Shown: positions 1 through 26,697, numbered from the stretch's first letter. The stretch: DNA of 64,000 bases from an uncultured Verrucomicrobiae bacterium (GCA_963731265.1 CAVSUE010000001.1:352001-416000); one strand, 5' to 3'. Numbers and translations: made by a program. Notes: a model not told the origin generated them from the sequence alone.

Positions 1-615
1 TTTTTTGACCTCGGAGTGTCATCTATGCAACTAGACAAAGATTACAAAGGGTTCAGTTTTTCCAAAGAAGGCCCGCTCGATATGCGTATGGACCCGACTG
101 GCGACCTGACAGCCAAAGAGATCGTCAATACATGGTCAGAAGATGAGCTTGCCCGTATTTTTCGCGACTTAGGGGAAGAGCCGAGGTGGAAAAGAGCTGC
201 ACAAGCTGTTACTGAAGCGCGCAGAAAAAAACCGATTTTTACGACAACTCAGCTTGCCGAGGTCATATCCGCTGCGCTAAAGACGCCCCTAAGAGGTAAA
301 TGGCATCCCGCGACCTTGATTTTTCAAGCTCTGCGCATGTGCGTGAACAACGAACTCGATGCGATCGCTCAAGGCGTCGCAAAAGCTGTCCATTTCCTTT
401 CTAAGGGAGGCAGGATCGGCGTGATGAGTTTTCACAGCTTGGAAGACAGAATAGTTAAAAATATCTTCAAAGAAGCTTCTTTCAAATCGAAAAAAGCGAA
501 AGAAGGGCCTGTTTTACGCCTTTTGACAAAAAAACCGATCGTCCCCGCTTTTGACGAAGTGAAGAAAAACCCGCGTTCGCGAAGCGCTAAATTACGTTTT
601 GCTGAAAAATTATGA
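1..615 (+). CDS. rsmH: 16S rRNA m4C1402 methyltransferase RsmH (MraW), 5' end outside window
   Basis: DLGVSSMQLD, GPLDMRMD, SFHSLEDRIVK and NPRSRSAKLR motifs; lies upstream of ftsL-ftsI-murE. The TGA stop (613-615) falls inside the mini-element end. Confidence 0.97.
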   Translation, partial: FFDLGVSSMQLDKDYKGFSFSKEGPLDMRMDPTGDLTAKEIVNTWSEDELARIFRDLGEEPRWKRAAQAVTEARRKKPIFTTTQLAEVISAALKTPLRGKWHPATLIFQALRMCVNNELDAIAQGVAKAVHFLSKGGRIGVMSFHSLEDRIVKNIFKEASFKSKKAKEGPVLRLLTKKPIVPAFDEVKKNPRSRSAKLRFAEKL

Positions 616-724
616 ACCCAGGCCTTAAGGACTGGGATTAAGTTGGGACCGAGCTTCGGACTCGGGCCCACATTGTTTTTGAAAATACCCGGCCCTTAAG
701 GGCGGGGTTTCCGCCGGAGGACGG
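612..724 (+). mobile_element. Start-codon-associated three-hairpin mini-element, copy 1 (rsmH/ftsL junction)
   Basis: ATGAACCCAGGCCTTAAGG...CCCGGCCCTTAAGGGCGGGGTTTCCGCCGGAGGACGG followed by ATGAA of ftsL; near-identical to five other copies. Confidence 0.93.
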
Positions 725-1096
725 ATGAATCTGAAGGCAACCCTTGCACGTATTTTGATCTGTATCATCGGCTGTGGAACGTTCCTTTATTCCTACGTGG
801 ACAAACAAAATGCGGTGACAAAACGGCGCTTGGATATTCCTGTGCTCGCCAAAGAAATTAAAGATCTGAATGAAGAAAATACCCATTTACGTTATGAGAT
901 CGAGATCTTTGAAAGCCCCGAGCATCTGATGGAGTTAGCGCGCCATAGCGAATTTAGCCATTTGAAGCATCCCATGCTCAAAGACATCTTGTCGTTGCGC
1001 GAAGGACTAGCTCTACAAGTTGGTTCTCAAAAAGCAGAAGAAGAAAAATCTGCTGCTCGACCGTTCCTCAATTTCCCGATCGGCGCCAAGCAATAA
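725..1096 (+). CDS. ftsL: Cell division protein FtsL-like
   Basis: N-terminal TM helix plus coiled coil; sits between rsmH and ftsI. Confidence 0.8.
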   Translation: MNLKATLARILICIIGCGTFLYSYVDKQNAVTKRRLDIPVLAKEIKDLNEENTHLRYEIEIFESPEHLMELARHSEFSHLKHPMLKDILSLREGLALQVGSQKAEEEKSAARPFLNFPIGAKQ

Positions 1097-1111
1097 TTTC
1101 ACAATCCTAAT

Positions 1112-24969: not shown

Positions 24970-25256
24970 TATACCGAAGTGAACCCAGGCCTTAAGGCCT
25001 GGGATTAAGTTGGGGCCGAGCTTCGTACCCCGCCAACATTGTTTTTGAAAATACCCGGCCCTTAAGGGCCGGGTTTCCGCCGGAGGACGGATGAACACGA
25101 AATTTGGTTTTTTGCTGCGTCGGGTAGGCACTCCATTTGAGCCCGCCTGCATCGCGCAACTTATTCAAGTTGCGCTGCTTCGGCGCCGGCGTTGCCTGGC
25201 ACAAATTCAGGGCGCATCCTTGCCAAATTTCCAAATTTCGAATTCATTTCGGTATA
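24970..25256. repeat. Family B foldback element (~175 bp net), interrupted by mini-element copy 5
   Basis: TATACCGAA[insert]ATGAACACGAAATTTGG...CCAAATTTCGAATTCATTTCGGTATA termini; core GCCTGCATCGCGCAACTT-ATTC-AAGTTGCGCTGCTTC. Confidence 0.8.
24979..25090 (+). mobile_element. Mini-element copy 5, nested in the left arm of a family B element
   Basis: GTGAACCCAGGCC...GGAGGACGG then ATGAA. Confidence 0.93.
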
Positions 25257-25262
25257 CTTAAG

Positions 25263-26588
25263 ATGTTTACTTCCCCGTGGCACTATTTTGTTGATCCTGT
25301 TCTTCAAGCTCCAACGATCGGAAGCATGTTGATGTGCTTTTCTTCGGCCCTCGTCGGCGTGATCATCTTCTTGCGCAAGCGGTCTTTGCTCGGCGAGGCG
25401 CTGTCCCATGCGGCCTACCCGGGGGTTGTCTTAAGTATTTTGATCATGGCCACTTTCTTCCCATTGGCTTCCGATTTTGCCGCTCTAGGAATTTTGATCG
25501 GGGCTTTTCTCTCTTCTTTGCTGGGACTGTGGGTCATCGAAATCCTCGAAAGGCGCTTTCGGGTCAAAAACGATGCAGCGCTCTGTTTTGTGCTGTCTGT
25601 TTTTTTTGGGTTTGGAGTTTTGGTCGCCAGCCGCATTCAATTTACCCATGCGCTGTGGTATAAAATGGCGCAAATTTTTCTTTACGGTCAAGCCGCGACG
25701 ATGACAGATGTCCATATGTGGATCTATGGCGTGCTCGCCATTTTTTTAGCTTTTGTCCTCGTTGTTCTTTATCGGCAGATCGCCATGTTGATTTTCGATC
25801 GCGATTTTTCTAAAGCGGCGGGCATTGCCGCCCGTTGTATCGACAGCCTGCTTTTAATTTTGCTCGTCCTGGCCATTGTGATCGGCATTCGCAGTGTCGG
25901 CGTTGTCCTGATGGCCGGGATGTTGATCGCTCCTGCAGTCGCAGCCCGCTCTTTAAGCCATCGATTGTGGGCGGTTTTTCTTTTTGCTGCGGCCATTGGG
26001 GCGGTAAGCGGTTTTTTGGGAAATTACCTCTCCGTGGAAATCCCGAGTTGGGGAACCCGCCAAGGCTGGGACTGGAAATTTTCCCTTCCAACAGGACCGA
26101 TGATTTTGCTCTCTGCTTCCGCGATTTGTGTTTTATCTCTTTTGTTTGCTCCGCAAAATGGCCTTGTTAGTCGATTCCTGCGCATTCTTCGTTTCCGACA
26201 GCAGTGCAGAGCGGAAAATTTGATGAAATTTTTATGGCGCTCAGGACCTGATGGCAAAGCATCGCTAAATGAAATTCAACGGTGGCAACCCCTTTCTTTT
26301 TTTCAAATCTGGAGATTGAAACGGCAAGGATGGATTGAAGAAAGCCCAAAGAATGTTCTGCGTTTGACCAAAGACGGTTCTCTTCGAGCAGGCCGTATCG
26401 TCAGGCTACATCGCTTATGGGAAGCCTATCTCGTTTATTTGGGCCAAGGCGTTGAAAAAGTGCATCGAAACGCGGAAGAAATGGAGCACATCATCACTCC
26501 TGAATTAGAAAAAGAACTGTCCGAACTTCTCGGCGACCCTAAAGAAGACCCGCATTCACAGCCGATCCCTCCGAAGGGGTCGATGTGA
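25263..26588 (+). CDS. ytgC: Metal ABC permease fused to a DtxR-family repressor domain (YtgCR/TroCR)
   Basis: ABC-3 permease motif GEALSHAAYPG plus C-terminal HRLWEAYL...AEEMEH...DPHSQPIP; likely start MFTSPW at 25263. Confidence 0.9.
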   Translation: MFTSPWHYFVDPVLQAPTIGSMLMCFSSALVGVIIFLRKRSLLGEALSHAAYPGVVLSILIMATFFPLASDFAALGILIGAFLSSLLGLWVIEILERRFRVKNDAALCFVLSVFFGFGVLVASRIQFTHALWYKMAQIFLYGQAATMTDVHMWIYGVLAIFLAFVLVVLYRQIAMLIFDRDFSKAAGIAARCIDSLLLILLVLAIVIGIRSVGVVLMAGMLIAPAVAARSLSHRLWAVFLFAAAIGAVSGFLGNYLSVEIPSWGTRQGWDWKFSLPTGPMILLSASAICVLSLLFAPQNGLVSRFLRILRFRQQCRAENLMKFLWRSGPDGKASLNEIQRWQPLSFFQIWRLKRQGWIEESPKNVLRLTKDGSLRAGRIVRLHRLWEAYLVYLGQGVEKVHRNAEEMEHIITPELEKELSELLGDPKEDPHSQPIPPKGSM

Positions 26589-26697
26589 ACCCAGGCCTTA
26601 AGGCCTGGGATTAAGTTGGGGCCGAGCTCCGTACTCGGCCCAACATTGTTTTTGAAAATACCCGGCCCTTAAGGGCCGGGTTTCCGCCGGAGGACGG
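26585..26697 (+). mobile_element. Mini-element copy 6 (ytgC/ytgD junction)
   Basis: GTGAACCCAGGCC...GGAGGACGG then ATGAA; its TGA is the ytgC stop codon. Confidence 0.93.

Follow-up and report, generated by a model that had tools for sequence, protein, structure and literature searches.

In a 64,000-nt stretch of the assembly GCA_963731265.1 (CAVSUE010000001.1:352001-416000, labelled as an uncultured Verrucomicrobiae bacterium), which is called the window below, a repeat with a body of about 113 nt and without genes is present in six copies, and no further copies were found there. With a probability of roughly three in four, this repeat is a non-autonomous, gene-less member of the IS200/IS605 group, that is, a palindrome-associated transposable element (PATE), which would be moved as single-stranded DNA by a Y1 HUH transposase encoded elsewhere in the genome. 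The anatomy of the element, the lack of a target duplication, the target preference, the empty sites, the lack of copies in gene interiors and the excess at overlaps were observed; the single-strand mechanism is inferred. The family is new, though IS200/IS605-type elements are already known, and its unusual twist is a target that coincides with the start codon, together with ends that carry a stop codon and a likely ribosome-binding site.

Four copies lie on the plus strand, copy 1 at 612-724, copy 4 at 18726-18839, copy 5 at 24979-25090 and copy 6 at 26585-26697, and two on the minus strand, copy 2 at 8015-8126 and copy 3 at 9512-9624; pairwise identity among the six is 91.6-97.5%. Read on its own strand, each copy runs through RTGAA, hairpin 1, hairpin 2, a T/A tract, hairpin 3 and then TTTCCGCC-GGAGG-ACGG, and ATGAA follows directly. 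The left word is GTGAA in four copies, such as copy 2 (reverse complement of 8122-8126) and copy 6 (26585-26589), and ATGAA in copy 1 (612-616) and copy 3 (reverse complement of 9620-9624). The target word was located at 725-729 for copy 1, where GGAGG occupies 716-720, at 8010-8014 for copy 2 (as TTCAT), at 9507-9511 for copy 3 and at 26698-26702 for copy 6, and the junction ATG of copy 4 is at 18840 and that of copy 5, which sits in the ytgB-ytgC spacer, at 25091. A preliminary description of this DNA had given six copies with this shared layout and the trailing ATGAA, and all of them were recovered, the sole deviation in GGAGG being a decayed AGAGG in copy 4. The hairpin pattern, searched with at most two mismatches, gave 25 matches in the window against 0.00 expected from 100 shuffles, accounted for by the 12 hairpins that the six copies contain, each counted on both strands, and by an extra site at 5791-5811; likewise GGAGGACGGATGAA with at most two mismatches matched six times against 0.48 expected.

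On the bottom strand the order is the flank word TTCAT, a 16-nt leader CCGTCCTCCGGCGGAA, hairpin 3, an A/T tract, hairpin 2, hairpin 1 and the end word TTCAC, with hairpin 3 standing 16 nt from the target-side boundary and hairpin 1 standing 4-5 nt from the opposite one. Folding z-scores were -6.45 for the bottom strand as DNA and -5.0 for the top strand as RNA, and hairpins 1 and 2 carry compensatory changes, with double changes at 7 of 20 predicted pairs. No inverted repeat is formed by the element ends, GTGAACCC... and ...GGAGGACGG, and no duplication surrounds them. A classical miniature inverted-repeat transposable element (MITE), whether Tc1/IS630-derived or of the Correia type, was rejected, as neither terminal inverted repeats nor a target duplication is present. 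A function as terminator was also dismissed: a simple scan flagged hairpin 2 of copy 6 alone, and its T tail is poor.

Copies from other assemblies were used as well. A hairpin-pattern scan of species-representative genomes returned at least 105 stretches corresponding to 104 loci (1.19 Mb in all), the window's own genome not being among those listed, and a profile built from the six window copies gave at least 113 matches on these loci, or 101 after inter-locus overlaps were removed. Among the matches listed, at least 58 are full-length copies outside the window, in 14 other assemblies, and these 58 together with the six window copies form the family set of 64. A single metagenome-assembled genome (locus group CAVOSF) contributed at least 37 copies. 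Most carriers are labelled Chlamydiae, Rhabdochlamydiaceae or Simkaniaceae and some Verrucomicrobia; some of these labels look like mislabelled Chlamydiota, because one assembly labelled Verrucomicrobia has chlamydial type III secretion genes (CopN-like, CesT-like and FHIPEP, at L040:2961-6925). In the window itself, the genes present, among them those of an ATP/ADP translocase, of UCH proteases and of a ytg operon whose repressor is fused, indicate an environmental chlamydia.

Across the 64 copies, conservation sets in sharply at RTGAA on the left (first base G in 48, A in 13, T in 2 and C in 1) and ends on the right with ATNAA (A 64; T 64; G 48, C 6, T 4 and A 6; A 63; A 55), and the flanks beyond both boundaries are random. 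In bottom-strand terms, the end motif is TTCAC in 46 of 64 copies and TTCAT in nine, and the target is TT-N-AT, its AT being invariant across the 64 copies and its third position being C in 48 of them. The same pair of words is on record for the ISGst elements of Geobacillus, for which the available text of Meers et al. (PMC10055086) gives TTCAT and TTTAT as targets and TTCAC as the end motif, target and end differing at positions 3 and 5, with insertion free of duplication and with gene-less PATE-like derivatives mobilised in trans. Positions 3 and 5 are also the variable ones of the present element, as in that account of ISGst (PMC10055086).

Twenty-two pairs of copies have identical interiors, and the junction words differ inside such groups, for instance ATGAA in L023, ATGAC in L030 and ATCAA in L021, or ATGAA in L068, ATGAT in L022 and ATAAA in L041. 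These copies read GTGAA on the left and ATGAC, ATCAA, ATAAA, ATGAT or ATGAG on the right, which means that the variable right-hand bases belong to the flank and that no target was duplicated; a TGAA target duplication is ruled out in this way. Selection against a stray ATG was rejected as the source of the variable G, as A and T are kept in 64 of 64 copies and identical copies differ at the G. This bears directly on the view that the repeat is a cut-and-paste mini-transposon with strict specificity for ATGAA at starts, in which RTGAA and ATGAA would be the two halves of a duplicated target. The window copies taken by themselves favour it, since all six have RTGAA on the left and ATGAA on the right and four of six stand at gene starts, but it does not account for identical interiors that carry GTGAA with ATGAC, ATCAA or ATAAA, nor for ends that are not inverted repeats beyond the hairpins, and we regard it as very improbable.

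Strict ATGAA specificity, which had been proposed from the window, is not upheld in the family set. The junction word is ATGAA in 39 copies, ATAAA in 6, ATCAA in 5, ATTAA in 4, ATGAC in 3, ATGAT in 3, ATGAG in 2, ATCAC in 1 and ATGGA in 1, so a word other than ATGAA is found in 25 of 64 copies, which again speaks against a mini-transposon with strict recognition of ATGAA. Six of these 25 are fused to long open reading frames (ORFs), comprising all three ATGAC copies, two of the three ATGAT copies and the ATGGA copy. Outside gene interiors, ATGAA was occupied at 30/419 sites, ATGAC at 3/183 and ATCAA at 5/378, the non-ATGAA words reaching at most 1.6%; nine of the 16 AT-N-A-N words were never occupied, and sites in gene interiors were unoccupied for all 16. 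ATGAA is preferred, not required.

A protein-coding relative is present in the window. An IS605-family element with a frameshifted tnpB occupies 4588-5831 on the minus strand (right boundary approximate), with the murE stop on one side and the start of a 108-codon ORF on the other; its tnpB ORF (4854-5729) matches OrfB_IS605 in Pfam, and zinc-ribbon-like remains lie further 3', out of frame. The left end of this element (5791-5831), which includes the hairpin at 5791-5811, could be aligned with that end of the small element which bears GGAGG, and the alignment to the bottom strand of the latter begins exactly at TTCAT. Its score was 35 as compared with a shuffle maximum of 27, and it was reached by none of 500 shuffles. 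The tnpB element adjoins TTCAT at 5832-5836 (-), which is the ATGAA start of the 108-codon plus-strand ORF with its signal-peptide-like beginning.

Several results count against the assignment to IS200/IS605. The right end of the tnpB element is without significant similarity to the other end of the small element (60 of 500 shuffles score as well), and no Y1 transposase gene was found in the 64-kb window. Around 43 partial copies, none was found among 120 ORFs of at least 130 codons (of 164 of at least 110 codons), which Pfam identified as ordinary non-transposase genes, and tblastn of the window TnpB against all loci recovered nothing besides TnpB itself. The search pattern also demanded an intact hairpin, which means that the hairpin conservation, including the invariance of hairpin 3, is partly built in. 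An unrelated transposase of the IS630 type is encoded in two ORFs (HTH_29, then DDE_3) at 42955-44071 (+).

The missing TnpA gene, sought in the window and in the 120 ORFs near partial copies, would be easier to understand if the repeat resembled the repetitive extragenic palindromes (REPs) and their doublets (REPINs), spread with similar chemistry by a different enzyme, a single-copy domesticated tyrosine transposase (RAYT). Short palindromes, a conserved end word, an extragenic location and many copies fit this explanation, and so does the report, in the part of PMC3733652 available, that REP ends serve as stop codons of flanking ORFs. One-hairpin mini forms at L001:8222 and L026:10001 also resemble single REPs. 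On the other hand, the end words are those of ISGst-type IS605 elements as given in the available text of PMC10055086 and not GTAG or CGTC tags, the left end of the tnpB element in the window is matched by one end of the repeat, and the three different hairpins with distinct left and right ends do not amount to two inverted REPs. A REP-like origin is therefore unlikely in our judgement, and a PATE of the IS200/IS605 group is the reading that we keep. The mini forms, of which a third was seen at L050:10001, are about 50 nt long and consist of the end word, a single chimeric hairpin, a GGAGG-like leader and the target word; that of L050 is perfectly symmetrical, with the leader and ATGAG on either side of one hairpin.

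Empty sites were compared at four places, all of them between diverged sequences and not alleles. In the ytgC/ytgD orthologue of a Rhabdochlamydiaceae assembly (L006), the junction is empty and reads gagacgccATGAAtcc (ccATGAAtcc), a plain ATGA overlap, and ytgD keeps the same Met-Asn-Pro-Tyr start as the filled window gene. The insertion site of copy 5 is in the left terminal repeat of a second small repeat, whose flanks, once the element is taken out, align straight through with the other copies of that repeat; the paralogous one at 11495 reads aacATGAAaag at the insertion point. The remaining two comparisons are ambiguous. The filled L034 and the empty L021 are 78.5% identical over 814 nt and both genes start ATGAAAAAAG, but the empty site has TAA and a 9-nt spacer in place of an overlap; the counterpart of the filled L002 in L032 is a single continuous ORF, and the real downstream start of L002 lies 7 nt past the junction ATG. 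By sequence comparison, the ytgC/ytgD and copy 5 sites would thus fit an exact insertion, and L021 and L032 appear compatible with it but not decisive. The expectation that empty orthologous sites would show an ATGA overlap and no duplication is borne out at ytgC/ytgD in L006, and not in L021, where the spacer is found instead.

The second repeat itself is about 200 nt long and unrelated to the element. It occurs in the window at 11495-11690, 20575-20790 and 25096-25290, the third copy being the one whose left repeat houses copy 5, and in another assembly at L078:2445-2690, and its ends are inverted repeats (GTATAC...AAAAGTTGG / CCAACTTTT...GTATAC) that enclose a hairpin.

Filled and empty orthologous junctions, together with identical copies at unrelated loci, agree with the proposal that the element is mobile and non-coding. 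They also weigh against an immobile conserved intercistronic RNA leader, made up of a stop codon, a structure and a ribosome-binding site and inherited vertically or copied by recombination. Such a leader would explain why copies are oriented with the downstream gene wherever one exists, and why the predicted RNA structure is strong. However, presence and absence vary at orthologous junctions, one copy is nested in another repeat, 27 of 64 copies have no fused gene on either side, and an Rfam search of window positions 1-30000 with E up to 1 gave no match at the gathering score. We find this explanation scarcely credible. The Rfam search returned a weak match to sot0042 (3' end) at 18802-18841 (-), in hairpin 3 of copy 4, with 21 bits against a gathering threshold of 88, which is probably merely a G+C-rich hairpin.

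The genes at the window junctions were assigned with ORFs and Pfam, and at four of six copies the junction ATG opens a real gene, as the preliminary description had stated. Copy 1 is followed by an ORF of 123 codons (725-1096, +) between rsmH and a penicillin-binding protein gene, which has no Pfam match and is called ftsL by its position. The ATG of a VTT/TVP38-family gene (7310-8014, -) is the target word of copy 2, a pyridine-nucleotide-disulphide oxidoreductase gene (8123-9511, -) starts at copy 3 and stops on the TGA of copy 2, and ytgD, an ABC-3 permease gene, starts at 26698 (+) at copy 6. Upstream genes that stop on the TGA of the element are rsmH (copy 1), the oxidoreductase gene (copy 2) and ytgC (copy 6), which encodes a permease fused to a DtxR-type repressor; no long gene stops on the left word of copy 3. 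Copy 4 is located between convergent genes, a UCH-domain gene (17391-18581, +) and an ATP/ADP translocase gene (18972-20549, -), and its junction ATG opens 38 codons only. From the junction ATG of copy 5, 56 codons are open in a frame other than that of ytgC, whose start lies, by orthologue alignment, about 190 nt beyond this ATG.

The three ATGAC overlaps that had been cited as empty (ytgA/B, hrcA/grpE and grpE/dnaK) are genuine and free of the element, but the msrB/msrA overlap at 10166, which had been overlooked, reads ATGAA and is also free, so some such junctions stay unfilled. Among the ATGAA overlaps within the window, three of four are filled and msrB/msrA is the empty one. In the family set, where an ORF counted as long from 80 codons upwards, or from 60 upwards if it ran open to the end of the locus, the junction ATG is the first codon of a long ORF in 28 of 64 copies, and 13 of these also end the upstream ORF; in nine copies only the upstream ORF ends in the element, and in 27 neither side is fused.

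Whether these positions exceed expectation was addressed by a census of ATGAA sites on the loci of the other assemblies, with the window junction at 8014 counted too. In the strict version the elements were masked and genes were defined crudely from ORFs. ATGAA inside genes was occupied at 0/2033 sites and elsewhere at 30/427, the latter comprising 17/334 intergenic sites, 6/76 plain starts (8/78 by script, before window 8014 and L034 were moved by hand) and 7/17 ATGA-overlap starts (5/15 by script, before these two were added). Overlap junctions were occupied far more often than intergenic sites (7/17 vs 17/334, odds ratio 13, p=3.5e-5), and plain starts were not (6/76 vs 17/334, p=0.40). A loose census, which held regular-expression false positives such as one in a Dyadobacter locus, gave 15/204 for starts, 17/306 for intergenic sites and 3/2050 for gene interiors, with p=0.46 for starts vs intergenic sites.

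Caution is called for in reading the census as enrichment, given that the strict numbers are small and come from loci chosen for holding a copy, and that the odds ratio for start codons hinges on the definition, being 1.35 with the loose calls and 3.0 with the strict calls when all starts are pooled. Judging by the enrichment at ATGA overlaps, coupled junctions seem to be favoured, be it by selection or by some bias of insertion. Targeting of start codons as such, which the preliminary description had put forward, is not borne out, as plain starts are occupied like intergenic ATGAA and only 28 of 64 copies are start-fused; a transposon strictly tied to start codons would likewise be hard to reconcile with plain starts that are no fuller than intergenic sites. 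The enrichment that had been expected genome-wide, examined here on the listed loci, was therefore present at ATGA overlaps and absent at plain starts.

The proposed mechanism would act on the strand opposite to the downstream gene, with a duplication-free insertion 3' of TTCAT. On the gene strand this target reads ATGAA, a start codon followed by the opening bases of a Lys or Asn codon and containing TGA; many start codons (Met-Lys or Met-Asn) and ATGA stop/start overlaps have this word. Insertion just 5' of ATGAA would leave the downstream ORF intact, and the far end, GTGAA, would return TGA at the same codon, so that the last sense codon of the upstream gene could change at its third base only (A to G). 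In the window this codon is changed from AAA to AAG by copy 2, which is silent, and from ATA to ATG by copy 6, and copy 1, whose left word is ATGAA, has no effect. Selection would then remove copies inside genes, and copies before starts and at overlaps would persist. The preliminary description had seen here a repair of the upstream stop codon. The TGA is indeed kept at the same codon; this effect arises largely from IS200/IS605 chemistry, through the likeness of the end word (TTCAC) to the target word (TTCAT).

At the other end, the leader reads GGAGG-ACGG immediately before the native ATG, with GGAGG 4 nt from it, and the earlier claim that the TGA of the element ends the upstream gene and that GGAGG stands 4 nt before the downstream ATG holds at the gene junctions. 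All 28 start-fused copies have an intact GGAGG, as do 30 of 36 others (p=0.031), the six decayed cases being non-fused. In most of the divergent subfamilies viewed, a purine-rich GGAG/GAGG-like core is found by eye 3-9 nt from the junction, with differing bases around it. Even a 4-nt Shine-Dalgarno core is present at only 13 of 35 native window genes, the value for random positions being 9.8%. From the intact GGAGG at starts, the core kept in subfamilies, the start and overlap sites that are not depleted and the few native Shine-Dalgarno cores, we infer that GGAGG is probably a ribosome-binding site.

Other observations oppose a role in translation. GGAGG is well kept away from starts too, in the 30 of 36 copies given above, and it may be needed for transposition rather than translation. 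It is partly paired in the predicted RNA fold, and it contributes the 3' arm and the loop to a small hairpin, in which TCC, beside hairpin 3, is the 5' arm; the stem of this small hairpin co-varies between subfamilies by eye (TCCG/CGGA, TCCC/GGGA, TCCTT/AAGGA). The tnpB element sits at a start codon without GGAGG. All of this could be understood if GGAGG were a by-product of what the left end requires and had no translation role, starts being tolerated since many genes initiate without a Shine-Dalgarno sequence; in the window, 22 of 35 native genes lack even the 4-nt core. Against a by-product stand the confinement of decay to non-fused copies, the core kept in most of the divergent subfamilies viewed, and start and overlap sites that are not depleted as compared with intergenic ones, which would be unexpected if a needed ribosome-binding site were removed by the insertion. 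We consider a by-product possible, though on balance improbable. The proposal that the leader was shaped into a portable ribosome-binding site and the end word into a portable stop codon is tentative and somewhat less likely than not; it would give the element a low-cost seat between coupled essential genes, such as those of cell division and metal uptake, where coupling would be replaced by independent initiation.

Some further features were noted. A CCCRGSCC-TTAA-GGSCYGGG hairpin is also found inside a different repeat, flanked by GGCTAAAGCC...GGCTTTAGCC, at L003, L007, L015, L016, L024, L045, L053, L059 and L099, in Bacteroidota genomes and one assembly labelled Patescibacteria. The hairpin common to both repeats may be a recognition hairpin for transposases across phyla, or may reflect convergence. 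In the window, 63-nt tandem repeats at 44372-45484 and 48647-50851 are leucine-rich-repeat protein genes, and near them duplicated segments are 92-93% identical (44298-44597 with 48573-48872, and 47710-48009 with 50966-51265). Eukaryote-like or effector-like genes at 17391-18581, 32431-34911, 46061-47491 and 56171-57703 encode two UCH-domain proteases, a Fic protein and a tyrosine phosphatase with a NADAR domain.

Compact genomes leave transposons little landing room, so that they would be expected to disappear, and the present family would be one way round this if GGAGG does act as a ribosome-binding site: the target word doubles as a start codon and as part of a stop codon, and the two ends carry replacements for the displaced signals. 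For annotation, it is relevant that in many environmental chlamydial assemblies a repeat coincides with gene starts, stops and operon junctions. For work on IS200/IS605 and TnpB, the family offers a natural case in which the choice of target motif, besides guide RNAs, decides the sites where elements survive.

Among known systems, the PATEs of Haloquadratum are reportedly small elements of an archaeal host, non-coding and with hairpins at their ends, which derive from IS200/IS605 (IS1341-type) elements; they are not known to us to carry an outward ribosome-binding site or to be associated with start codons. No account of the present element turned up in the literature searched, nor any of a MITE or PATE providing start codons with a ribosome-binding site. 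The palindromic elements of Rickettsia are inserted in frame within genes, and the Correia elements of Neisseria have terminal inverted repeats and a TA duplication. The present element shares with both that it is an abundant, small, structured repeat of compact genomes, located in or beside genes and probably co-transcribed, but it shows neither in-frame insertion inside genes nor terminal inverted repeats with a TA duplication. The GTAG-tagged REPs are palindromes linked to a Y1 transposase, whose end word is often the stop codon of a flanking ORF (Di Nocera et al. 2013, PMC3733652). As far as the available part of that source goes, REPs are single palindromes of 20-40 nt with a GTAG or CGTC tag, no distinct ends and no ribosome-binding site opposite, and the present element differs in these respects, its ribosome-binding site being a likely one. 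With ISGst2-5 of Geobacillus stearothermophilus it has in common a TTCAT or TTTAT target at the left end and TTCAC at the right end, subterminal hairpins, duplication-free insertion and gene-less derivatives, according to the available text of PMC10055086. It is unlike them in its host phylum, in its hairpin sequences and in the outward-facing GGAGG 4 nt from the target, and a pile-up at start codons and ATGA overlaps, as seen here, is not mentioned for ISGst in that portion of PMC10055086. IStrons, which are related to IS605, likewise lessen the harm of their own insertion, as described in the accessible parts of 10.1101/2023.11.20.567912 and 10.64898/2026.03.11.711047. They do so by splicing themselves out of the mRNA, whereas the present element would keep a stop codon and offer a ribosome-binding site without a ribozyme. 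If it is true that the ends supply a portable ribosome-binding site and stop codon, this would be a harm-limiting strategy distinct from that of IStrons, and one that would allow a transposon to flourish where genomes are gene-dense, as in obligate intracellular bacteria.

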